A stretch of 11,543 nucleotides of DNA from a virus (IMGVR_UViG_2698536484_000028), one strand, 5' to 3'. Shown: positions 1-11,543, numbered from the stretch's first letter. Numbers and translations are program-made. The notes: generated by a model not told the origin, from the letters alone.

Positions 1-84
1 TACGTCATTGAACATATCCAGGACTGGCCGGCAAACCGGGTACGCGATCTGTTGCCCTGGAAAGTTGATCTGAGCTCTCAGTAA
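1..84 (+). CDS. 3' end of an ORF entering from upstream of the window; product unknown
   Basis: Frame 1 is open from the window edge to TAA at 82-84 and translates to YVIEHIQDWPANRVRDLLPWKVDLSSQ*. There is no start in the window and I do not recognise the family. Confidence 0.2.
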   Translation, partial: YVIEHIQDWPANRVRDLLPWKVDLSSQ

Positions 85-145
85 ATATCAATACGGTTCT
101 GACGAGTCGCTTACGGTATTTAAATGACATAGGGTTTTTATTCCC

Positions 146-170
146 AAATAAAAAACCCCGCGATGCAGGG
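146..170 (-). terminator. Rho-independent terminator ending the minus-strand replication operon
   Basis: Minus-strand RNA reads CCCUGCAUCGCGGGG (stem CCCUGC/GCGGGG with one U-G wobble, loop AUC) followed by UUUUUUAUUU. It lies about 25 nt downstream of the stop of the 194..955 gene. Confidence 0.55.
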
Positions 171-193
171 TTGTAATCAACAATAAGGGGTAA

Positions 194-955
194 TTACGAG
201 GAAGCGTTAGCTATTTGAGCTTGTGTAAATTCGAAACCAGAATTTTGTAACCGTTGCACTAGACGAGGAACTGTTTCACGTACATGGTCGTTGAAATTCA
301 GATACAAAATCCCGTTAGCATCAGAAGGCTGTTCTAGGTGCTGTTTCTGAAGGATTGCTACATTGCTGCGCCCTAAGGACGAAAGAAGCATACCCATCTC
401 GAGTACAACGTTCTGTCTTGCGCGGGGTTGGATTTCTGCTTCACCGGCGCGCTTTGAGTATCCCATATCATCAGGTGTCAAAAGAACAATCCCGAAACGG
501 GTAGCAGTTTGTCCTTGCCCAATTTCACGTTCAAGCTCTTCAATAATGGTGAGTCCAGTCCCTCCCGTATTCTGCAAAATGAAATGGTCTGGTAATCCAA
601 GTTTATGAAGGATTAGCTCAAGTTGCTCCTTTGCAGTATGGTCATGGCCGTGAACAATGAATATCTTTTTGGGGAGCTCAGATGGCTGTTCTACGGCTAG
701 TGGTGTTGCCGTGGGCGGCGTTCCTAAATGGGTCATTATTGCAGTTTCAACATTGGGACGTTCTTGAGGGTTACCTTGAAACTGAATGGTCCGGGTGGTG
801 TAAAGGTTAACAATTACGCCATTCGTTAAACGATAGCAGTCACAAGTCTCACGCTGTTCGTGGGAAAAATTGGTGAACCCACACTCCCTCAAAAAGTCAG
901 GAAAAGTTTCTCTCGAGTATGGATAGGTGATCGGCATTTCAGTTAGTTCCTGCAT
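194..955 (-). CDS. TIR-like (COG4271 / Cap12-PycTIR-effector-like) nucleotide-binding domain protein with an unrecognised ~75-aa N-terminal domain
   Basis: 253-aa ORF with AAGGA about 9 nt upstream of the ATG. Residues ~97-230 carry KIFIVHGHD..AKEQLELILHKLGL..GLTIIEELERE..FGIVLLTPDDMGY..NVVLEMGMLL, which I recognise as the hallmark pattern of the predicted nucleotide-binding TIR-like family. A Pro/Thr-rich linker (GTPPTATPLAVEQPSELP) joins it to the N-terminal domain. Family assignment is from memory, not a search. Confidence 0.75.
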   Translation of the reverse strand: MQELTEMPITYPYSRETFPDFLRECGFTNFSHEQRETCDCYRLTNGVIVNLYTTRTIQFQGNPQERPNVETAIMTHLGTPPTATPLAVEQPSELPKKIFIVHGHDHTAKEQLELILHKLGLPDHFILQNTGGTGLTIIEELEREIGQGQTATRFGIVLLTPDDMGYSKRAGEAEIQPRARQNVVLEMGMLLSSLGRSNVAILQKQHLEQPSDANGILYLNFNDHVRETVPRLVQRLQNSGFEFTQAQIANASS

Positions 956-1019
956 AAGTATTGTTCCTTTAATTTACTCGAATTCAGCATGTCGCCATAG
1001 CTCGATAAGGTGAGTTATA

Positions 1020-3083
1020 TCAATCTTTTTTGTAGTGGTACGCCTCAAAACCGCCAGCGTTCAGTGGGATATCGGGCGCCCATTCGGGGTCAGTGGAGAG
1101 AAGCGCGGAAAGCGCTTTATCGTTGAAATCTTCTGTGTCAGGTGCTTCGGTGATCACCTCGTCGTGTACCGTCAGCACAATGCTGTAACCGGCATCTTCG
1201 ATAAGCGGCATGTTTCCGGCCAGAATGTCGCGGGCGGCCGCCTGGGTGATGTTCTCCACCAGCTTTCCGCCGTAGGTTTTGAGTCGTTGCCATTTACGCG
1301 AATAAGAGTTAACCCCCATGTAGGTGATATTCCCTTTTTCGATAACCGGAGACGGGTAGCATACAGCGCGTCCGGATGGTAGCTGTATGCGCAGCCACGC
1401 GCCATCGCGGCGGATTTTAAGATAACCGCAATACAATGTTTTTTGCGGTGTGGCGATTGCAGTGCGGACGGTGCGCTCCAGTTCGTACCAGAAATCACAG
1501 GTCGCGGGATGCGCCCGGCGCCAGAGACGTTTAAGTGAGTCGCAGGCGATAAATACCCGTTCAGAAAGCCCGTAGGTTGACTTGCGTTTAACCGATTCGT
1601 CGTACCAGCTTTTCGCCTCGCGGATAACATCGCGGGGAATGTTTGGTAGTGCGGCGTTCGCCAGCTCGTCGAGATCGAGACCGTAAACCAGTGCAAAAGT
1701 GATGAAGGCCGACACACCACCACCATAACCCAGACCGAGTTCCATGACTTTACCGATCTGACGCATGTGTTTATCAACATCATCTGGTGCAATATCGAAA
1801 GCTTTTGCATACGCCAGTTTATATAAGTCCGGACCCGTTCCGGCGTCGTACTCTCTGAATGCATTCAGTTTCCATTCTTCTCCCGCCAGCCATGCCAGCA
1901 TACGGCCTTCAATGTTCGACAAGTCACTTACCACCAGCTTTTTGCCTGTTGGCGCGATAATGCAGCCACGTAACGCTGAACTGGTTAGTTCCATGATATT
2001 GTCAAACAGCAGGTCTGCACATCCGGCTTTCAGTGCTTCGATGCCTTCGTCTATTTGTTCCTGTTTTAGTGAAGGGCGGGGAAGGTTCTGGGGCTGGAAT
2101 AGCCGTCCGGCCCAACGACCGGTACGTGACGCCCCGCAGAACTGTAGCGTACCGCGTAAGCGCCCGTCGTGGCTTACGCCTTTCATCAGTGCCTTGTATT
2201 TACTGGTGCTGGTAGTACTGGCCTGCAGGCGGATAGCCAGCAGTTCTTTCACGGCAGATGGTAAATCGGGGTCGGCAATACGACGTTCCAGAGTACTGCG
2301 TTGCATGTCTGGTAGCTCCACACCGTAGGATTCAACAATGTGCTTAATCAACGCGTCTCGTTGTGTGGCTGCCTGCACTTCGCCATCAGTCATTTCCTGT
2401 GTACGCTTTGCCAGGCGCTTTTGCTCCTGGTCTACCGCTTCGATCGCAGCGCGCGCGAGTTGAATGTCCATGCAGACGCCCCGGTCGTTGATCTGCTGAT
2501 CACGATGCCAGAGCGCCAGTTCTGTCCCCTGATAATTCCACTTCGGCAGACGTTTATAGACTTCGCGCATTGCCTCGATATCCAGTCCGGCGTAAGCAAC
2601 AAAGCGCCGCCATTCTTCCGGGTGGGTTTTACTGGTGGCCCGACGCAGTTTGCTGTTTTTCGGGCGTGGCTTACAGAACAGCTGGATCAGCGCTTTACCT
2701 TCTTTGTCCTTCGCTTTGTCTTGCGGGACGCCGAGTATTTCGCAGAGTTCCCCCAGAGACCCCGGGAGGCCGTGCGCCAGCGCCTGCACCATTGTGTCGC
2801 GCCAACGTTCGACTGGCGGTGCCAGGCGCGGCATTGCATAACGCAGAACGGTGCGGTCGAAGTGAGAGTTATGGAAATAAAGCAGGGTTTCAGGGTCTGC
2901 GATTGCTTCGTATAAGCCGTGTGGAATACCACCACCGGCAGTGATATCCCACACGTTTACTGGCCCGTCGTTGATAGCCCATGCGAAAAGCATCACTTCA
3001 ACGCCTTCGGCATACGCATGGGTACCGTTCGTAATAGGGATTTCGCAATAGGTTTCCAGGTCGCCCCATAGTATATTGGACAT
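1020..3083 (-). CDS. Family A (Pol I-like) DNA polymerase with N-terminal 3'-5' exonuclease domain, phage type
   Basis: 687-aa ORF with AAGG SD 7 nt upstream. Exo I-like motif WGDLETY near the N-terminus; motif A-like [15 protein letters not shown], motif B-like [16 protein letters not shown], motif C-like LTVHDEV. Confidence 0.9.
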
Positions 3084-3129
3084 GTGTTTACCTTGGTTTT
3101 TATTCTATTAACTGATTAAAAGATTAATT

Positions 3130-3759
3130 ATGCATATGATCCAATACTTGATTGACCATACAGAGCATCTGGAGAAAATAGCTGGATATATTTTTTCATG
3201 TTTGATTGTTATGGGAGTCTGGATAAGAAAGATTATTTTTAATTATAAGTATAAAGAGCCTAAATATGTTAAGAAGTTAATTTTATATTTAGTTAAGTAT
3301 GAACGTTATCTGGATGAGGAGGATAAGAGTGCCATAGAAAAAAGAATAAATGATAAAATTATTCGTGATGCGCTGAAATTGCAATCATCTTATAACCGAA
3401 GAGATGTTATTTACATTTGCAATAGATTAGAAAAAAGACAGTATATAAATCAGTTGATTAAGCTTCAGAATTATATAGAGAAAGATAACGGAGTGTTTTT
3501 TATTAATGTTGATTTTTCAGGTTTTTTATTTATTATTAGTCGTCTGTTTTCCTTTCTGTGTTTTGTGCTGTTTACCCTTTTTTCTATTATCTGCATTATT
3601 TCCATAGGGCAAAATGAAGGCCTTTTAAATTATCTTGTGTATATGGTTATGATAATAGTTTTAGAGACTGTTGGTTTTTGGATGTATGATACTTTCCCGT
3701 CTAAGAAAAAGATCTGTGAACTAAATAAAGAATTGAGAAAGATTAAGATTCCTGAGTGA
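3130..3759 (+). CDS. Hypothetical multi-pass membrane protein encoded by a strongly AT-rich, opposite-strand insert
   Basis: 209-aa ORF on the opposite strand to its neighbours. Sample 60-nt lines count about 17-33% GC, against roughly 50% in flanking genes. Hydrophobic segments at ~aa 16-32, ~121-160 and ~168-187; Lys/Glu-rich middle region. No clear SD, and the start could be a downstream Met. Confidence 0.6.
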   Translation: MHMIQYLIDHTEHLEKIAGYIFSCLIVMGVWIRKIIFNYKYKEPKYVKKLILYLVKYERYLDEEDKSAIEKRINDKIIRDALKLQSSYNRRDVIYICNRLEKRQYINQLIKLQNYIEKDNGVFFINVDFSGFLFIISRLFSFLCFVLFTLFSIICIISIGQNEGLLNYLVYMVMIIVLETVGFWMYDTFPSKKKICELNKELRKIKIPE

Positions 3760-3777
3760 TTATACGCCTAATCAGTA

Positions 3778-3796
3778 GCCCGGTGTTTAACCGGGC
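3778..3796. other. GC hairpin between convergent genes (GCCCGG-TGTTTAA-CCGGGC)
   Basis: Perfect 6-bp inverted repeat with a 7-nt loop between the stop of 3130..3759 (+) and the stop of 3812..4360 (-). No U-tract on either strand, so not a canonical intrinsic terminator. Confidence 0.3.
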
Positions 3797-3811
3797 GTCT
3801 ATGAAGTAGGG

Positions 3812-4360
3812 TTAAATTAGTGCTTCAGCATCAGCACCTTCGCTGATATCGTCGAAATCGTCAGCGCTTGCCACTCCGCCGCCAGCGAGTGCATCGCCGT
3901 CTCGCAGGAACTGGACTCCGCCGAGTGAGGCATTAATGCGTTTACCGAAATTATTGTCCTGTGCCCAGATATCGATAACGGCGTTTACATAGCACCCTGC
4001 ATAGGGACGTCCGTCAGCCTGAATAAGTGGCGAACGATCGCGATCAAGAACAGCTGGGCGCGCTTTGTTAGCAGCATTCAGGAAGAAATTACCGGGGAAG
4101 CCTTCATACTCTGCTTTTTCATCACCATCATGCAGGCACAGATTGAGTTTTTTCTCCAGCTGGTTATAAATGGGCTCCCACTTCTCTCCCCATTTTTCCT
4201 TCGCTACCTGCTTCATAGCTTTACGGATTTCTTCCAGTTGTGGGTGTTTGGGAGACATTAAAAATACTGCGGAGAAACGCGGATCGCCTTCGCCGTTTAC
4301 AGTTTTAGCTTCAAACAGAGACGGGAAGGCCAGACGAACATTGTTCAGCTTCAGTTTCAT
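3812..4360 (-). CDS. Phage SSB-like protein (DUF2815-type) with acidic C-terminal tail
   Basis: 182-aa ORF with AAGGA SD 8 nt upstream. N-terminus MKLKLNNVRLAFPSLFEAKT..PRFSAVFLMSPKHP matches my memory of the DUF2815 phage ssDNA-binding family (as in the Enc34-type replication module). C-terminal acidic tail DDFDDISEGADAEALI. Confidence 0.8.
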   Translation of the reverse strand: MKLKLNNVRLAFPSLFEAKTVNGEGDPRFSAVFLMSPKHPQLEEIRKAMKQVAKEKWGEKWEPIYNQLEKKLNLCLHDGDEKAEYEGFPGNFFLNAANKARPAVLDRDRSPLIQADGRPYAGCYVNAVIDIWAQDNNFGKRINASLGGVQFLRDGDALAGGGVASADDFDDISEGADAEALI

Positions 4361-4375
4361 GGGTATTTCCTTAAA

Positions 4376-5677
4376 TCAGATGAGGTCTGCGGTTAGCGTA
4401 TCGTCGGATACGTCGTCGAAATCATTTACAGGGTTGATATTGAGTGCGGGGCGTGGGTCTGACTCGGGAACGACGGTGGGTTTTCCATCAGCTCGTGTTA
4501 TCAGTGCCTCGACTTTTGACCAACGGCGCGGACTGGCCTTTTTGATAAGTTTTTCGGCTTTTGTGGGACTAATAAGTTTAAAGTCGAATACTTCTTCAGT
4601 TTTGTACCTGAACTGGTCCTTCAGAAGTGCGCGAGCTGCCTCTTCATCACTCCAGGCCCGGTTACCTTGTTTTCCTGTTACCAGTTTAAACCCCGGTACC
4701 GGATGTCCGGCATTGAGTTCATCGTGAACCCGGTCCCGTACTGCCTTTAGCCAGGATTCAATAAAGTCGGCCTGGCTATAGATCTCTGCAAGCTGCTCAA
4801 TGGTTAACAGAGGTACACGTGCGCTGGCATTGGTGATTATTTCGCTGACAGGCTTTGTCAGATCTTCAAAATCGCTGGCCGCTGTTTGTAAATGCTGCAT
4901 TTTCTGGGCAGTGCAAATAGCTTTTGCTTTACAGAAGCGGCACTGTTTTTCTCCAGGTATGAAGTTTTCCAGCGGTAGTGTCTCAATGCCTTCGCATTCA
5001 GCAATATTGAGAACAAGGATCGCACTGGTTGCGGCCTCCAGTGCCCGTTCACCGAAAGACTGAAGTTCCTGTACGGTTAACGACCATTCTGAAACGTGGT
5101 TGAGCCTTGGCTGGTGAATAAATAATCTTACAGTCTCAAAGTCATACAGCATGCTGAATTGTTCGAGAGCACCCAGAGCATACAGTTGTAGTTGCTCATT
5201 TTGTTCTGCATCAATGCGGACGCCTTTGCCATATTTCAGGTCGTGGATTTGTAATTCGTTACCAGCGATGATTATGCCGTCGGCAGTTCCGAAAGATTCT
5301 TCCACACCCGTTATATGTGAGAAATCAACACGTTGTTCAACCAATAGTTCATTATTCTGTGCAAGAGTCCAGACCGTATCAACATACCGGCCGACGGCTT
5401 CGACCATTTCATCATCCACCTGTGGGCCAGATGTATCATCAGGATTTTCGCGAAGGGGGTATGAGCCGAGAAACATAGAAACATTGCATCCGGCGTAGTG
5501 TTCCGGGTGGCTTTGCCTGTTTCGTAGAACTTTTTCAGCAAGCGCGTGCGCTGTAGTGCCCTCGATTGCAAAAGTTGTTTCTTTATCCGGTTGTGTGGCC
5601 TCCAGCGCCAGACTTCCTGGGCAGCGCATCCATCGATGCGCTGATGATGGAGAAAGTTGTGCGTGAACGTCTGGCAT
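4376..5677 (-). CDS. Cas4/RecB-like PD-(D/E)XK nuclease (DUF2800-type) with Cys cluster
   Basis: 433-aa ORF with GGAGGG SD 6 nt upstream. N-terminal [15 protein letters not shown]; GTADGIII and IHDLKYGKG nuclease-core-like motifs; QLQLYALGA (QxxxY); [10 protein letters not shown] plus the N-terminal Cys as a probable Fe-S/metal cluster. Acidic C-terminal tail [16 protein letters not shown]. Confidence 0.8.
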
Positions 5678-5679
5678 GA

Positions 5680-6582
5680 TTAACCCTCCAGTGCTTTTTC
5701 AGCCAGGGTGATTACTTCAGCGAGATTTTCATCCGTTACTTCACCAAGTTTCCTGGCTCCCTGTTTTTCCAGAATTGCAATAGCTTCTGCCCGGTAGCCC
5801 CCTTTTGCTAACTGGAGGATCAACCCTTCAGCTTGTTTGCGTAGTGCCGCGAAATCAATTGTATGGTCATCTTTGGCGTCATTATTCTGGCTGGAATTTG
5901 CTGCGTCTCTGCGTGCAAATTCTTCCTGCAGCTGAAGGTACTCAACACGGTTGATCTCGATATGGCCTTTTTTAAGCATCTCGTTCAACTTGCGTAAGGT
6001 GTGGAGTTCACTGGCTGCTGTGCCGGATACATTTTTGACGTAAAACGGCCCCGTGCGTTCTCCATCTTTGTTACTGGCCTTTTTCGGCTTAACTTCATCA
6101 CGCCCATCTGCAGGTGCATCAAGTAGCTGCTCGGCAAAAGCACGTCGCTCGCCGATGGTTGGCAGGTCGTCCCAGAACTTAAGGATGTTACGGGACAGGT
6201 CCAGGAGAGCAGGTTTAAGCAGCGCCCTGGCTCGTTTGACGCCCTGCAATGCGCTGTCGAGAGCATCAATCTGAACTACTCGTTTATCGCCTTCAGCATC
6301 ACGGTAGGCAACAGCACGTTGCAGCATATCTTCTGTGATAGGGGTGGCTACCGGGTAGAAACCAGCCAGTGCGATAACGTCGCTGAACTCCAGATCATCC
6401 AGTGTCATTGCCGCTGACATATTTTCAGTTTCAGTTGCTGTATCCCGACATTCCTGCACTCGTGAAATCGTGTCAGGATGCATAACAATACCTGATGCCA
6501 TTGTGCGGATAAGACGTTCAAGCAGCGCATTATGTTGTGCCAGAAGTTGATTATTAAGTTCTAGACTGGTTTCTAAACTCAT
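5680..6582 (-). CDS. Hypothetical protein, first large gene of the replication operon
   Basis: 300-aa ORF with GAGGA SD 7 nt upstream. Its start overlaps the upstream ORF stop (ATGA) and its stop is 2 nt from the nuclease start. No family recognised. Confidence 0.7.
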
Positions 6583-6728
6583 ACTGTGGTCCTCGCTACA
6601 AGGAGAATGAAAGTGATGATCAGACCGAGCGCAGTGGCAACGGCCAGACCGGTCATCAAATCGAAGTTTTTACGGCGATAACGGAGAACATCGCGCCCCG
6701 TCAGTCGATGGATGTGTTCAGGTTTCAT
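6579..6728 (-). CDS. Small single-pass membrane protein (about 49 aa from the preferred start)
   Basis: The ORF track gives 6579..6761, but the Met at 6728 has a good SD (AAGGA, 9-nt spacing) while 6761 has none. C-terminal hydrophobic helix LMTGLAVATALGLIITFILLVA. Translationally coupled (ATGA) to the next gene. Confidence 0.5.
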   Translation of the reverse strand: MKPEHIHRLTGRDVLRYRRKNFDLMTGLAVATALGLIITFILLVARTTV

Positions 6729-6785
6729 CGGTTGTATTCCTTTTTTCATATCGGGGAGCACGCTGTTGCGAGTGCGCTTTCAGAC

Positions 6786-6813
6786 ATAAAAAAGCCCGTC
6801 ACTTGCGGCGGGC
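6786..6813 (-). terminator. Intrinsic terminator-like hairpin on the minus strand, upstream of the replication operon
   Basis: Minus-strand RNA reads GCCCGCCGCAAGUGACGGGC (5-bp GC stem with additional inner pairs) followed by UUUUUUAU. It lies about 58 nt upstream of the 6728 start codon, on the same strand. Confidence 0.45.
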
Positions 6814-6891
6814 AAAGACTACACACAGCAATTACATGGATATCATCGAGTGCCTGCTTTTAACCACATCAGGCGAGGTGGTTCTCCTTGT

Positions 6892-6936
6892 ACCCCTACA
6901 GTGAGAAATCGTCTAATATCTCTTCACCCCTACAGT
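6892..6936 (+). repeat. Two direct copies of ACCCCTACAGT upstream of the 6953 gene
   Basis: The core CCCCTACAGT occurs at 6893-6902 and 6927-6936, 34 bp apart. The second copy sits inside an imperfect inverted repeat (TCTAATATCTCT .. GAGAGATTAGA). A TAATAT hexamer lies between them at 6914-6919. Confidence 0.35.
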
Positions 6937-6952
6937 TTGAGAGAGATTAGAT

Positions 6953-7471
6953 ATGTCTGAAGAAAAAGGAATTCTTTCCCGGATAACTGAATCGTTATCC
7001 GGTGTGGGAGGAGCAATTAAAAGCGCGGTTGGAGCAGCAAGAGAGATTCAGAATCTGACTGTCGACTATGCAGTTAAAGAGAAGACGCACATCTTACTCG
7101 ATAAGCTAATGGATGTTCAGATGCAGCAAATGTCGCTTCAGGAGCTGCTGATTGCGGCTAAGGAGAAAATTGTTGAACTGGAAAATGAGAAAGTAAAGCA
7201 AGAGAACTGGGCCGCTGAAGCGGCGAGCTATGAACTTTACCAGCCTATGCGGGGTACTCTGGTCTATCGCAGCAAGCTTTCTGCAGATGCTGACCAATCT
7301 CCGGTTTATATTTGTCCCAATTGCTACGAGCAAAAGAGAAAATCTATATTGCAAGCGGAAGGTCTGGTTACTAAGCTAGGCCTTGGGCGAGTCGTTAATA
7401 TGGTTTGTTCGTACTGTAGGGCTTCCTATCTGTTCAACCCGAAATGCTTTAGAGGCCCGACTGCCTTCTGA
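6953..7471 (+). CDS. Hypothetical coiled-coil protein with C-terminal zinc-ribbon (CPNC..CSYC)
   Basis: 172-aa ORF with GAGAGA SD-like sequence upstream. Gly-rich N-terminal segment (SGVGGAIKSAVGAA), predicted coiled coil (LQELLIAAKEKIVELENEKVKQENW), then CxxC-25 residues-CxxC. Convergent with the cI-like gene. Confidence 0.7.
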   Translation: MSEEKGILSRITESLSGVGGAIKSAVGAAREIQNLTVDYAVKEKTHILLDKLMDVQMQQMSLQELLIAAKEKIVELENEKVKQENWAAEAASYELYQPMRGTLVYRSKLSADADQSPVYICPNCYEQKRKSILQAEGLVTKLGLGRVVNMVCSYCRASYLFNPKCFRGPTAF

Positions 7472-7574
7472 AGATGAAAATCCGGGGAAGGCAATCACGG
7501 ATTACGATCCTTACAACCAGTAATTTCTTTAAGCATGGGTACCCTTCCGGTCACCCAGAGTTAAAGGAACTAAG

Positions 7575-7601
7575 CGCCCCATCATCGGGGCGTTTCAACT
7601 T
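7575..7601 (+). terminator. Possible plus-strand terminator after the 6953..7471 gene
   Basis: CGCCCC-ATCATC-GGGGCG hairpin (7575-7592) followed by TTTCAACTT. The U-tract is weak. Confidence 0.3.
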
Positions 7602-7737
7602 GCGTGACTTATCAGTTCGTCGCGGTGTTGTCCTCTACGCTTACCGTACGCATACGGACTCGGCGCTTACCTCGATCCCATCGGGTGCTATTTCGTTTTG
7701 CCAGGAGCACTGCGGCTTACCTGTCACGCGGTTCTGT

Positions 7738-7749
7738 TTGTTAAAGAGC
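7738..7749 (-). promoter_or_regulatory. boxA element (exact GCUCUUUAACAA) in the leftward transcript
   Basis: The minus strand reads GCTCTTTAACAA, identical to the rrn boxA core 12-mer as I remember it (NusB/NusE binding site). It lies about 30 nt downstream of the predicted start of the leftward promoter. Confidence 0.45.
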
Positions 7750-7773
7750 TGGTATTAGAAAATGCATTAATTA

Positions 7774-7814
7774 TGCGGTATCGTATTTATATGCGTTATG
7801 GGATTTTGTGTCAA
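7774..7814 (-). promoter_or_regulatory. PL-like leftward sigma70 promoter overlapped by two operator-like repeats
   Basis: On the minus strand: -35 TTGACA (rc of 7809-7814), 17-bp spacer, -10 TATAAA (rc of 7786-7791). Operator-like motifs TGCGGTATCG (7774-7783) and TGCGTTATGG (7792-7801) flank the -10 hexamer. Confidence 0.55.
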
Positions 7815-7830
7815 TACGAAAATGAATTAT

Positions 7831-7868
7831 TTTGCAAATAAGAAAACCGCCCTTGTGGAGAGCGGTTT
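7831..7868 (-). terminator. Intrinsic terminator downstream of the cI-like gene
   Basis: Hairpin AAACCGC..GCGGTTT (7844-7868) with extra inner pairs; on the minus strand it is followed by UCUUAUUUGCAAAAU. Sits between the cI stop (7899) and the PL-like promoter. Confidence 0.5.
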
Positions 7869-7898
7869 GATCAGAGGTAAGTTATCAGACTGTAAAGG

Positions 7899-8573
7899 TT
7901 AGTACATGCGTAGCGCGGATTTGGCGATCCCCGCCACGTAATGGATTTTTTCAATGTTTTCGCGTGGTACTCTGACTGGTGGATGATCTTCATTTACAGA
8001 CATTAGATGGAACAGGCCATCGCGTTCGAACAAGAAGGTTTTAACCATGACCTCACCGTCCCGGGTAACCACAAGTACTTCATCACCAGGAGTGTAGTCG
8101 TGGTTGGGTTCGACGATTACGAACTCACCCTCTTTGATTCTAGGCATCATTGAATCACCAACACATTTCAGGGCGTATGCATCTTCATCCTTTGTCGGCC
8201 AGTATATGAAACCATCACTGCTACCTACTGAATATTGGGTGTCGCTCCAAAGTCCTCCAACGCCTAGCTGAGTGTTTCCCAAAACAGGTACTTTATTAAA
8301 CCTAAGAGAAATATACGTTTTTATACCTGTCGCGTCCTCTTTCTCCATTTCTTGAAGGCTCCTTTCTGCCAGGTCTATTGGTGACACGTGGAAGTAGTCG
8401 GCGATCTGCTTTAACGTTGCGTATTTCGGATCTTTCACCTCTCCTGATACCAGCCTGTGTAGCGTTGGTTGGTTCAGCTGTAACCGACGTGCCAGCTCAG
8501 TTATCGAGCTTATCTTGGTTTTGTCCATCAGGTACTTGATGTTTTGAGAAAGGATATCGGTAGTATCAATCAT
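7899..8573 (-). CDS. cI/LexA-like phage repressor (N-terminal HTH, C-terminal S24 peptidase domain)
   Basis: 224-aa ORF. N-terminal HTH region (ITELARRLQLNQPTLHRLVSG); C-terminal S24 signature with Ser in CVGDSMMP and Lys in EVMVKTF. No canonical Ala-Gly cleavage site in the linker; candidates are L-G or V-G-G in VPVLGNTQLGVGG. Confidence 0.85.
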   Translation of the reverse strand: MIDTTDILSQNIKYLMDKTKISSITELARRLQLNQPTLHRLVSGEVKDPKYATLKQIADYFHVSPIDLAERSLQEMEKEDATGIKTYISLRFNKVPVLGNTQLGVGGLWSDTQYSVGSSDGFIYWPTKDEDAYALKCVGDSMMPRIKEGEFVIVEPNHDYTPGDEVLVVTRDGEVMVKTFLFERDGLFHLMSVNEDHPPVRVPRENIEKIHYVAGIAKSALRMY

Positions 8574-8714
8574 TTGGATTCATCCATGTTGTATACAGGG
8601 ACGGTGATTATGCGTTATCGGATATTTTAATACAGGATGATATAGAATTGCCGTATTGCTGAATAATCCGTTTTCGTATAAATTTGCGCTATAGACGAAA
8701 GTGGAGACTTAAAT
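8574..8714. promoter_or_regulatory. Divergent cI/cro-type immunity control region
   Basis: Operator-like motifs TGCGTTATCG (8611-8620) and TGCGCTATAG (8685-8694). Candidate rightward promoter -35 TTGCTG (8656-8661) / -10 TAAATT (8679-8684), with cro SD GGAG at 8703-8706. Candidate leftward -10 CATAAT (rc of 8607-8612). Palindrome TGTATACA at 8590-8597. Confidence 0.5.
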
Positions 8715-8915
8715 ATGTCCGGACTAACACCACAAGAGATGGTCAAAAGCTTGATTGATTCAGGGTATACCCAAAACCAAATTGCCGAAATTGCAGGCGT
8801 GAAGCAGTCTTCTATTAGTCGGCTTCTCACCGGGGTTCATTCTGACCCTCGCTTTTCTACAGTACGTGCGATAGAAAAGCTTTTTCAGGAAGTGACAGCT
8901 AGACAAAAGGCGTAA
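8715..8915 (+). CDS. Cro-like small HTH (XRE-type) regulator
   Basis: 66-aa ORF divergent from the repressor, with GGAG SD 8 nt upstream. HTH region QNQIAEIAGVKQSSISRLLTG. Stop is 3 nt before the primase start. Confidence 0.8.
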   Translation: MSGLTPQEMVKSLIDSGYTQNQIAEIAGVKQSSISRLLTGVHSDPRFSTVRAIEKLFQEVTARQKA

Positions 8916-8918
8916 CCC

Positions 8919-11180
8919 ATGTCTGATAACAAACCATGGGGAGCTACGCCCGATGAGTGGTTCCACTTCGATCTGGTGTTGGGGATGACAGACAGGCTTT
9001 TACCTGTGGTGTCCAATCCCTGTGCAGAACTGTCGCCTAATAGCAAGCTGTCTCATAATTTCGGCAAAACCCCCAGTCGCTACAATGGCCAACGTAAGGT
9101 TGTTGGTATCCCCGACTGGGCTAACTATGTTGTTACGGAAAACGATTTTGCCCGGTGGTCGAACGAACCCGATTACGGTATTTGCGTTCGTACTGGCGAC
9201 GGGGTGGTGGCTCTGGACTGCGATATCAATGACGCCGGGATGCAGGAGATCGTACGCAATATTATCCTATCATGCCTGGGGGAACTTCCGCCACGTCGCT
9301 GGCGGGCTGACAGTCATAAATGCCTGTACCTGATTGCTGTTGATGGCGACTACCGTAAACGTGGTCACCGCCTGGAAGGCGAAAACAAACAAATAGAGCT
9401 GCTCGCTAAGGGCCAGCAGTTTGTGGCTTGTGGTACCCATCCGGCAGGCGAACGTATTCAGTGGGACAGCGGTTTGCCCGGCGAACCTCTGAAAATTACA
9501 TCTGAACAGCTCGAAAGCCTGTGGCAGCGTCTGGCGGATAACTTACCCGTGAAAGACAGCTATACCGCAGGTGCAGGACGTCAGCGTGACCTTTCCTGTG
9601 TTGATCCTTCCGCGACAGATGATGTCGCCGACTGGCTTGACGCGAACGGGTGGACTCTGTCAGTCAGCTCTGATGGTTCCCGCAATCTGAAACCGTTTCG
9701 GGATGAGTCAGAATACAGCAACGGTTGCAGCGAAACATCCATTAAGTATTTTCCAAAAGGGACGGGGGGATTTGAACAGGGACATTTTAAAAGCATGCAC
9801 AACACCGATGCGGGGCTTACTGATGCCGACTGGCTGGAAGGCTACGGCTATACGCAATCCCTGTTCGAAGATCTCACGGTGGCTGAAGATGGCGATAAGC
9901 CTGAATTTACCGATATTAATACAGATATGACAGCTCATTTTCTGGAACGCTTTATCTACGTCATCGAGGGTGACCAGGTATGTGATCTTAGCCGACCGCC
10001 ATATCAGTGCATGATGGATATGAAGTCGTTCAAAAACCTGATGGCGCCTTACCAGTTCCCGCCAGAAGGGAAAGGACAACCAACTCCCGCAACCAAACGG
10101 TGGATAGAGCATCGGCATAAGAAGATTGCTGAGACGACAGGCTATAAGCCCGGTGCGGGACGTATTATCGAGCGTTTCGACGGGCGGTTTGAGATAAACG
10201 AATTTTATATGCCTGAGCATCCACGTACAGCGGATACAAGTAAGGTGTCCACGTTCCTTAATCATATGGCGTATCTGGTACCTGATGCCTGGCAGCGCGA
10301 GTTTTTCATCGCCCGTCTGGGGTGGATGGTTCAGCGTCCGGAGCGTCGATGCCCGATTTCTATTCTGCATGTGGCTACCGCACATGGTACGGGCAGAGGA
10401 TGGGTCAGTCAGTTAATGGAGCGCGTGCTTGGCCCGTGGAACTGTGCTCGTACTCGCATGAAGATCCTGTGCGATAACCAGTTCCATGACTATCTGTACA
10501 ATACACTTCTATGCACCATTGACGAGGTGCGCGAAAACGATAAGCGGTATGAGGTGAACGATAAGATCCGTGACGTGCTGACAGAACCACGGTTTGAAGT
10601 GAACCGCAAATATGGCAGCAAAAAAACGATGGATATATACACCGGCTTTCTGTTCTACACCAACCACTTTGATGCGCTGGCGCTGCCAGAGGAAGACCGA
10701 CGTATAGCTGTGCTGGGGGGCCCTGACTTCGCCGCAACTGAAGAGCATTACGCCAGCCTGTACGGTGCGCTAAGCGACAGCGACTTTATCGCCCAGGTGT
10801 ACTGGTATCTAATGGGCGTTGACCTGTCTCGCTTTAACTGGCAGCGCGCCCCCGAGACGAAAGAACGCCTTCTGATGATTGAAAGCAATAAGAGCGATGT
10901 GGAGGCTGCTCTTATTGAAATCCTGGATAATCCGCCTGTGCCAGCAATGACTTATCAACAAATTGTTAACGCAATACTGGCAGAAGCAGGAATGGATGTA
11001 GAAATTAACCAGAAGCATATTACTCGCATTTTGAAAGAAAGAACAAAGCGGGAACCCGTACGCGTAAAAATTGACGGGTTTGTATATAGGATTTGGATTC
11101 TTGTAAAAAATAACGATTTCAGCAACGAAGAATTGCGCGAAATATATAAATCTTGCGAAATTTTGCAATCTGGATTGTAA
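8919..11180 (+). CDS. Replication initiator: AEP-type primase-polymerase N-terminal domain fused to an SF3-helicase-like NTPase domain
   Basis: 753-aa ORF. N-terminal GICVRTGDGVVALDCD (hhhDhD-type AEP motif). C-terminal region has P-loop-like ILHVATAHGTGRGW, Walker B-like LLCTIDEV and motif C-like FYTNHF. An iteron origin lies immediately downstream. Confidence 0.8.
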   Translation: MSDNKPWGATPDEWFHFDLVLGMTDRLLPVVSNPCAELSPNSKLSHNFGKTPSRYNGQRKVVGIPDWANYVVTENDFARWSNEPDYGICVRTGDGVVALDCDINDAGMQEIVRNIILSCLGELPPRRWRADSHKCLYLIAVDGDYRKRGHRLEGENKQIELLAKGQQFVACGTHPAGERIQWDSGLPGEPLKITSEQLESLWQRLADNLPVKDSYTAGAGRQRDLSCVDPSATDDVADWLDANGWTLSVSSDGSRNLKPFRDESEYSNGCSETSIKYFPKGTGGFEQGHFKSMHNTDAGLTDADWLEGYGYTQSLFEDLTVAEDGDKPEFTDINTDMTAHFLERFIYVIEGDQVCDLSRPPYQCMMDMKSFKNLMAPYQFPPEGKGQPTPATKRWIEHRHKKIAETTGYKPGAGRIIERFDGRFEINEFYMPEHPRTADTSKVSTFLNHMAYLVPDAWQREFFIARLGWMVQRPERRCPISILHVATAHGTGRGWVSQLMERVLGPWNCARTRMKILCDNQFHDYLYNTLLCTIDEVRENDKRYEVNDKIRDVLTEPRFEVNRKYGSKKTMDIYTGFLFYTNHFDALALPEEDRRIAVLGGPDFAATEEHYASLYGALSDSDFIAQVYWYLMGVDLSRFNWQRAPETKERLLMIESNKSDVEAALIEILDNPPVPAMTYQQIVNAILAEAGMDVEINQKHITRILKERTKREPVRVKIDGFVYRIWILVKNNDFSNEELREIYKSCEILQSGL

Positions 11181-11183
11181 AAA

Positions 11184-11437
11184 GGTGACGGCTAGGTGAC
11201 GGCAAAACGCTTAAGCGTCACCTTAAAAAGTATATATAAAACAATGGGGAATGTGCTAAAGGTGACAGGTGACGGCAGAATTTAAAACTATATACGCGAG
11301 AGTGTGTATTTTAGGTATTATACGATCGCTTATATATATATAGAACTAAAATCAACCGTCACCTGTCACCTAAAACATCTTCAGGCTTTATATGGCGCGC
11401 TTTGCAGCAGGTGACGGATATGTAATTACGCGTCACC
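11184..11437. repeat. Iteron-type replication origin: eight GGTGAC(G/A)G repeats in both orientations around an AT-rich spacer
   Basis: GGTGACGG at 11184-11191, 11195-11202 and 11410-11417. Tandem GGTGACAGGTGACGG at 11261-11275 and its exact reverse complement CCGTCACCTGTCACC at 11356-11370, flanking an ~80-bp AT-rich segment that includes TATATATATATAG. Inverted CGTCACC at 11216-11222 and 11431-11437. Confidence 0.6.
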
Positions 11438-11440
11438 TAG

Positions 11441-11543
11441 GGAAGGTGCGAACAAGTCCCTGATATGAGATCATGTTTGTCATCTGGAGCCATGGAACAG
11501 GGTTCATCATGAGTCATCAACTTACCTTCGCCGACAGTGAATT
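11441..11543 (+). mobile_element. Left end of IS5 (terminal inverted repeat plus start of transposase), truncated by the window edge
   Basis: GGAAGGTGCGAACAAG at 11441-11456 matches the IS5 terminal repeat as I remember it and is preceded by CTAG (a typical IS5 target). The downstream sequence matches the known IS5 left end up to the transposase start. Confidence 0.8.
11509..11543 (+). CDS. insH: IS5 transposase InsH, N-terminal fragment
   Basis: ATG at 11509 translates to MSHQLTFADSEF.., the N-terminus of IS5 transposase as recalled. The ORF runs off the window. Confidence 0.75.
   Translation, partial: MSHQLTFADSE

Follow-up and report, generated by a model that had tools for sequence, protein, structure and literature searches.

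A putative iteron origin in temperate Escherichia coli phages, likely read by the predicted C-terminal winged helix of the adjacent PrimPol-NTPase protein

The window, i.e., the whole stretch of 11,543 nucleotides of viral DNA analyzed here (IMGVR_UViG_2698536484_000028), carries a 260-bp region that is very likely the vegetative replication origin of a temperate E. coli phage, read by the predicted C-terminal winged helix of the protein encoded directly upstream. The original prediction had proposed an origin bound by the adjacent primase-helicase, and this proposal was supported by an array geometry shared among relatives, by co-variation of the repeated word with the wing of the protein, and by the predicted winged helix. 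The basic design is already known, and the origin is an uncharacterized example of it. None of the papers retrieved in literature searches seems to concern this family. The array was unannotated in all records examined, and the replication gene beside it was annotated only as “DUF5906 domain-containing” or “hypothetical”.

The word AGGTGAC was matched nine times in the 11.5-kb window, where 0.92 matches were expected, and this count was reached in 0 of 200 shuffles. The related word GGTGACRG was matched seven times at an expectation of 0.57, with seven matches likewise reached in none of the 200 shuffles. All matches of both words were located between positions 11183 and 11438, and none were found in the remainder of the 11.5-kb window. 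The repeats had been described as eight copies of GGTGAC(G/A)G. They are real, but their number is nine, comprising seven exact GGTGACRG and two GGTGACGC sites (11215-11223 and 11430-11438, both on the minus strand). A tandem pair, AGGTGACAGGTGACGG, was found at 11260-11275 with its exact reverse complement at 11356-11371, and the two bracket 80 bp of DNA with 74% AT, in line with the TA-rich sequence that had been noted there. The inverted pair itself was also present as predicted, while its length is an exact 16 bp instead of the proposed 15 bp.

Iteron 1 (11183-11191, plus strand, AGGTGACGG) starts 3 bp past the TAA (11178-11180) of the ORF at 8919-11180, and its offset of 4 past the stop codon is kept in relatives. 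Iteron 2 (11194-11202, plus strand, AGGTGACGG) follows 11 bp after iteron 1, and the inverted iteron 3 (11215-11223, minus strand, AGGTGACGC) completes this group. The left inner tandem pair consists of iteron 4 as its outer member (11260-11268, plus strand, AGGTGACAG) and iteron 5 (11267-11275, plus strand, AGGTGACGG), which lies 7 bp further toward the center. Beyond the center, iterons 6 (11356-11364, AGGTGACGG) and 7 (11363-11371, AGGTGACAG) are both on the minus strand, followed by iteron 8 (11409-11417, plus strand, AGGTGACGG) and iteron 9 (11430-11438, minus strand, AGGTGACGC). The choice of A or G at position 7 is positional: GGTGACAG is confined to the outer site of the tandem pairs with 7-bp spacing, and its A there doubles as the first base of the next AGGTGAC. 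In intact relatives a tenth site is present in the form ...CGTCACCTAG CCGTCACCC. The complete layout of ten 8-9-bp sites is a dyad, [> > <]...[> >]-AT-rich core-[< <]...[> < <], with five sites per side.

The AT-rich center at 11276-11355, the putative unwinding and priming region, exceeds the mean AT content of the window (52%). For the 80-bp stretch from 11276, the nearest-neighbor stability was -89.8 kcal/mol, which is 2.7 sd apart from the window mean of -111.3 kcal/mol (sd 7.9). The center is among the least stable duplex DNA of the window without being its minimum, which lies in the ORF at 3130-3759. When 13 origins representing five iteron classes were aligned, an inverted core became apparent within the center, comprising CTATATACGCGAGAG (11288-11302, in nearly invariant columns), about 35 bp of intervening DNA, and the partner TAYGTATATAGAAC (11333-11346, reading TATATATATAGAAC in the window). 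This core, CTATATACG...CGTATATAG in its short form, is independent of the iteron class. The spacers between sites were poorly kept in the same alignment, with no compensatory pattern apart from the iterons, and a conserved 30-bp block was found past site 10, just ahead of the ribosome-binding site of the next gene.

DnaA box, IHF, and Fis consensus sequences were absent from all 13 origins, and a centrally placed GATC was conserved in part of the origins only. The promoter and terminator scan of the array returned nothing above shuffle expectation, and no tRNA genes were found. Matches to known RNA families were limited to far sub-threshold hits to eukaryotic miRNA hairpin models, which are an artefact of the dyad of the array. 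In the enterobacterial clade, the array is also bracketed by two similar 16-bp quasi-palindromes. The left one, TTGCGAAATTTTGCAA, is located at 11153-11168 in the window, within the last primase codons and 15 bp before site 1, and is also coding-constrained. The right one, TTGCAAATATTTGCAA, occurs in the prophage locus L001 at 14661-14676, 12 bp past site 10 and within the conserved 30-bp block.

Related arrays occurred at the same place and in the same geometry, in agreement with the comparison of related elements that the original prediction had called for. A scan of viral contigs yielded 78 loci, and sites were mapped in 17 enterobacterial loci. All 17 contained 8-10 copies of one word past the stop codon, at offsets of 4> 15> 37< 81> 88> ~177< ~184< ~228> ~250< ~261<. 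A further scan with one genome per species reached proteins down to 38-60% identity. All full-length relatives examined (~40-100% identity) carried a comparable array of 6-10 repeats 3' of the stop codon, with the exception of L026, which among the relatives keeping the C-terminal part has an extended C-terminus and no array; it was treated as a rearranged locus. Arrays were also detected in Serratia, Izhakiella, Erwinia, Arsenophonus, Xenorhabdus, Limnobaculum, Pasteurellaceae, Cardiobacteriaceae, and marine gammaproteobacteria, as well as in alphaproteobacterial and planctomycete MAGs. The offsets were near-identical (within a few bp) in gammaproteobacterial relatives at ~41-60% protein identity, and the arrays of the alphaproteobacterial and planctomycete MAGs were looser and less regular.

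At least five word classes were identified, GGTGACGG, GGTGACAG, GGTGGCAG, GGTAACAG, and GGTGTCAG, and further words occurred in distant relatives (GGTTGCAG, GGTACCA, GGAGACG, and GGTAGCA). The GGTGACGG class comprises the window and 11 loci (L001-L003, L007, L009-L011, L013, L015, L023, and L081, the last being phage record ON470588). Each element uses one word at all ten sites, and direct and inverted repeats switch together, so that the suspected element-specificity of the iteron word was borne out. The array region was present in 45 of the 5426 E. coli genomes, each time as a single copy and always beside the primase gene, which rules out a dispersed repeat or MITE, the finding that had been named as one that would overturn the origin reading.

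In a sister family, similarity to the protein is limited to the PrimPol N-terminus, at 60-98% identity across residues 1-330, and this part is joined to a VapE-type NTPase whose P-loop is the canonical GCGKS. Loci of this family have their own arrays past the stop codon (L027 at 5221-5480, L028, L031, L050, L053, and L058). In L027, the word ACTCAAC occurs ten times, at 31> 40> 60< 96> 104> 113> 184< 193< 229> 254<. The presence of arrays after VapE-type fusion genes indicates that the design principle also holds in the sister family.

The gene directly upstream of the array (8919-11180, plus strand) encodes a putative initiator of 753 aa, in which an N-terminal PrimPol (AEP) domain is followed by a central NTPase ring domain of the DUF5906/SF3 type and, at the C-terminus, by a predicted winged helix. 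Pfam matches were obtained for PF09250 (Prim-Pol, residues 75-185) and PF19263 (DUF5906, residues 488-595), and no Toprim domain was matched in Pfam. The protein also matched PHROG 1156, “DNA primase”, and an NCBIfam search returned no match. The closest solved structure was the NrS-1 helicase domain (6K9C/6K9E, E 6e-8). A phmmer search against all PDB sequences (E <= 1) recovered only this domain and a spurious CagT match, and no SaPI Rep. Residues 620-753 were modeled with AlphaFold2 from 28 homologues at a pLDDT of 82.7, and the modeled topology over residues 660-727 (10896-11099, plus strand) was H-S-H-H-S-wing-S. The C-terminal domain is predicted from this model to be a winged helix, with a recognition helix at residues 698-709 (NQKHITRILKER) and a wing hairpin at 714-727.

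Two further features of the protein were observed. Arg occupies residue 493 (10395-10397), the position of the catalytic Walker A lysine in NrS-1, giving GTGRG in place of GKQGTGKG. This R493 was invariant in 29 homologues, and an unbiased HMMER search found a Walker A Arg in at least 121 of 147 representatives of 50%-identity clusters, with Lys only in the most distant ones. At E <= 1e-30 the family spans at least 172 clusters. As the exchange is clade-wide, a canonical ATP-driven self-loading helicase cannot be assumed. The second feature concerns residues ~258-295 (window ~9690-9800), where most relatives have a Cys/His motif with the alignment consensus CPFxDGHS...GHFKCLHASCAHR. The window lineage reads NLKPFRDESEYS...GHFKSMHNTDAGL and is without these cysteines, which suggests that a zinc-binding element of the PrimPol was lost in this lineage.

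The binned identity profile showed that the word class follows only alignment columns 701-750 of the protein. The proteins of L004 (GGTGGCAG) and L008 (GGTAACAG) were 98-100% identical to the window protein in each 50-column bin before column 701, but only ~70% identical in 701-750. Conversely, those of L010 and L011, which share the GGTGACGG word, were ~60% identical to it over the N-terminal ~350 residues, yet 93-95% identical in the wing bin. Wing identity (residues 709-727) was 0.89 for same-class and 0.56 for different-class pairs, a difference reached in 0 of 5000 label permutations, whereas over residues 1-699 the corresponding values were 0.83 and 0.82 (829 of 5000 permutations). The variable residues are located within ...KREPVR-VKIDGFVYRIW..., and the triplet at 721-723 reads FVY, IAQ, CTN, MTV/DTL, or MGY/IGY depending on the class. 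In the model, the class-determining residues sit in strands S2 and S3 and in the wing, and the recognition helix is nearly class-invariant. The specificity segment (residues 710-727, KREPVRVKIDGFVYRIWI; 11046-11099, plus strand) is the sole part of the protein that co-varies with the word. By comparison among relatives, the ten words are thus shown to behave as specific recognition sites that co-evolve with the wing (~710-727) of the adjacent protein. The co-variation places the specificity determinant in the wing, and initiation by the resulting complex would be a step beyond what co-variation itself conveys.

Nucleotide differences between L004 and the window amounted to 7 in 8919-10999, 0 in 11000-11047, 34 in 11048-11153, and 92 in the array. 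This profile indicates that the swapped unit runs from codon ~710 to the end of the array, and wing and array are exchanged together as a cassette of ~400 bp. Mosaic comparison ruled out co-variation of the word with the neighboring CI, Cro, downstream 76-aa CxxC ORF, and Q. L003 has the iterons of the window, yet its CI/Cro and downstream DNA are unrelated. L015 (GGTGACGG) and L004 (GGTGGCAG) differ in class and apparently have a common downstream replacement, as they show like identity profiles to L001. The 76-aa ORF is located after the origin in L001 (DEC5E prophage, 14699-14929, outside the window), carries two CxxC pairs, and is zinc-ribbon-like. It is swapped for unrelated ORFs in some relatives and shows no co-variation with iteron class.

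These comparisons also bear on whether the array serves mainly in transcriptional control, with the C-terminal domain or another regulator blocking or timing read-through into the late regulator. The array does lie between the early operon of cro and primase and the small ORF followed by Q, the conserved 30-bp block precedes the ribosome-binding site of the next gene, and early transcripts probably cross the array, because no terminator or promoter consensus was found there. However, the downstream genes swap freely while the linkage of array and wing stays, the layout persists in distant relatives, and a ten-site dyad with an AT-rich core 3' of an initiator-type gene is the layout of proven origins (PMC9371898, PMC6092414). 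Transcriptional control as the main role is therefore decidedly unlikely, and a roadblock role could exist beside the origin function, not in place of it.

It is highly unlikely that the functional element is a large stem-loop or cruciform with the repeats merely forming its arms, as proposed for pRN1, where ORF904 uses a stem-loop downstream of its gene, and for the Bordetella phage BIP-1, which has a similar one (PMC4234260). As single-stranded DNA, the 271-nt region folded at -55 kcal/mol (z = -7.5 against shuffles), but a dyad of binding sites by its nature confers such strong hairpin potential. Direct repeats (1/2 and 4/5 and their mirror images) cannot pair mutually, yet they switch together with the inverted ones. 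The correlation of the word switch with wing residues and the poor conservation of the spacers, without compensatory changes outside the iterons, likewise speak against structure as the functional element, and a cruciform could assist melting. A role unrelated to replication, such as packaging (pac/cos), partitioning as a centromere, or membership in a family of mobile or dispersed repeats (MITE, REP-like), is compatible with short, intergenic repeated words with overall inverted symmetry, but is extremely unlikely given a never dispersed, single-copy array constantly beside the primase gene, the one cluster in the phage genome at 3 kb from the terminase genes, a chromosomal prophage with no par genes nearby, and the co-variation with the primase wing.

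With the region read as a replication origin, initiator molecules would bind the two five-site half-origins, and ring oligomers would assemble on either side of, or over, the AT-rich center. The DNA would then melt at this center, which carries the inverted core, and priming by the PrimPol domain would follow. Elongation may be handed to the phage's own PolA, DUF2815 SSB, and DUF2800 nuclease.

Among known systems, SaPI Rep and PriRep proteins bind 6-12 iterons directly 3' of rep around an AT-rich center through a C-terminal winged helix and self-load as rings (PMC9371898). The origins of E. coli PICIs, e.g., EcCICFT073, have a like organization, and their function has been demonstrated (PMC6092414). 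The likeness extends to the origin being 3' of the initiator gene, opposed iteron sets flanking an AT-rich center, the winged helix of a ring NTPase/helicase, and element-specific iterons, and primase and initiator can be fused in those elements as well (PMC9371898; PMC6092414). In the window, the iterons start directly past the initiator ORF, five plus five opposed sites surround the AT-rich center (the right fifth being displaced by IS5), and the predicted C-terminal winged helix would set iteron specificity. Differences are the ten sites at fixed offsets, the class-independent inner core, and the Arg for Lys in Walker A. Moreover, the protein has no detectable relation to the solved SaPI Rep structures at the level of sequence comparison, and the element is no helper-dependent satellite but a complete temperate phage that itself encodes PolA and SSB as well as lysis, head, and tail functions.

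The repeat of P4, TGTTCACC, resembles CYGTCACC, the reverse complement of the word in the window. P4 needs a second repeat cluster, crr, kilobases away, whereas the word forms one cluster only in the 42.7-kb phage record ON470588, in which no second crr-like cluster was found. In the P4 alpha protein, a primase and an SF3-type NTPase are joined to a C-terminal winged helix by which octamer repeats are recognized in either orientation (PMC4234260). The protein of the window has a comparable arrangement in one polypeptide, with an SF3-type NTPase followed by a predicted winged-helix origin-binding domain, but its primase is an AEP PrimPol, while that of P4 is of the bacterial Toprim type. The proposed origin in the style of P4 ori/crr or PICI modules holds in the sense that it would work alike, and membership in these groups does not, as the element is a complete phage with an AEP primase and no second cluster, and P4 is a satellite.

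The domain order is closest to the type of pRN1 ORF904 and the replication proteins of Bordetella phage BIP-1/BPP-1, which combine a PrimPol, an SF3 NTPase, and a C-terminal winged helix (PMC4234260). Their origins likewise follow the gene directly and show marked dyad symmetry (PMC4234260). They have been described as stem-loops without iterons, whereas the symmetry here would be accounted for by separate, countable iterons that co-evolve with the protein, which suggests a dyad made up of such sites, at least for this clade. The polymerase of phage NrS-1 has a PrimPol and a hexameric SF3 helicase ring proposed to open dsDNA; its Walker A is canonical (GKQGTGKG), it possesses a novel “Tail” domain, and no winged helix or iteron origin has been reported for it (PMC7102993). 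It shares the fusion of a PrimPol to a ring NTPase and is the nearest solved relative of the central domain, but differs from the window protein with its GTGRG Walker A, predicted winged helix, and iterons. SV40 large T antigen and papillomavirus E1 are SF3 rings with an origin-binding domain that form two rings on a dyad origin. A dyad-symmetric origin and short repeated words beside AT-rich DNA are shared with them; however, they belong to eukaryotic viruses and have an unrelated origin-binding fold, fewer sites, and no fused primase. Lambdoid O/ori systems differ in that their iterons are located inside the initiator gene and the DnaB loader P is recruited, whereas the iterons described here are intergenic and past the stop codon. 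Neither the window nor the annotated relatives contained genes resembling O or P.

Upstream of the primase gene, genes were identified for a Cro-like HTH protein and, in divergent orientation, for a CI-like S24 repressor; beyond them, the window encodes a DUF2800 nuclease, an SSB of the Enc34 type, and a DNA polymerase of family A. Downstream of the array, intact relatives continue with the small ORF and the antiterminator Q, and then with genes for lysis, terminase, head, and tail. DNA with 99% identity was found within complete prophages of 44 of 5426 complete E. coli genomes, and the same DNA was present in four phage records (vB_EcoM-606R2, -611R5, -683R1, and -689R2). Window positions 114-11440 matched phage record ON470588 at 98.5%, with the homology starting at 114. 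Intact relatives encode terminase, portal, capsid, tail, holin, endolysin, Q, CI/Cro, and PolA. Because virion, lysis, regulatory, and replication genes are all present in the relatives, the element is a complete temperate phage and no P4-like or PICI satellite.

Other genes of the window were noted besides these. A TIR-domain protein is encoded at 194-955 (minus strand), adjoining the phage polA, and matched PDC-S35 (E 4e-109), a PADLOC family of candidate defense proteins, as well as the TIR effector domain of Pycsar/CAP12. This gene is also present in ON470588 (and presumably in near-identical sister records), and other genes are found instead in the DEC5E prophage. A 209-aa ORF (3130-3759, plus strand) is embedded in the block of replication genes but encoded on the other strand, and no other DNA of the window is as AT-rich or as unstable. 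Its only family match was phrog_10579 (function unknown), and it looks like an acquired moron gene.

The right end of the window (11441-11543) is formed by an IS5 end that continues off the window, with 103 of 103 nt identical to annotated IS5 in ~1800 records. The insertion point is the CTAG at 11437-11440, between iterons 9 and 10; the same CTAG is uninterrupted in L001 (14630-14650). IS5 has a target preference for YTAR. Through this insertion iteron 10, which reads CCGTCACCC in intact relatives, was moved beyond IS5, and the array is parted from site 10, the 30-bp block, and Q with the late genes. With site 10 and the downstream genes cut off, the window's copy of the origin may be impaired. 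This IS5 junction was absent from all complete E. coli genomes of the collection. At the left end, window positions 1-113 match the terminus of an IS66-family element (ISCro1) at 100% identity, so that the phage segment is bracketed by two different IS elements. IS5 within the array together with the IS66-family element at the left end suggests that this prophage copy may be decaying.

A broader proposal, possible but not probable, is that initiators and origins of this protein family form a naturally occurring library of orthogonal pairs. In such a library, two to four wing residues (~713-723) would reprogram 2-3 bp of the word at each of the ten sites of an origin with fixed geometry, and the cassette of wing and array would be mobile between phages and selected against cross-activation or hijacking by co-resident prophages or satellites. 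As a further part of this proposal, the Arg-Walker A ring may open the origin non-canonically, possibly without hydrolysis, and not as an ordinary self-loading helicase.

For a group of temperate enterobacterial phages with unannotated origins, the analysis provides a specific candidate for both the origin and its initiator. It further provides a paired data set of wings and 8-bp words that covers at least five classes, found on near-isogenic backbones, plus additional ones from distant lineages. Paired data of this kind are rare for winged-helix recognition and have a possible use in orthogonal replicons. The clade-wide change from Lys to Arg in Walker A bears on how rings open DNA, and the occurrence of a PICI-style origin layout in complete phages bears on the source of satellite replicons.
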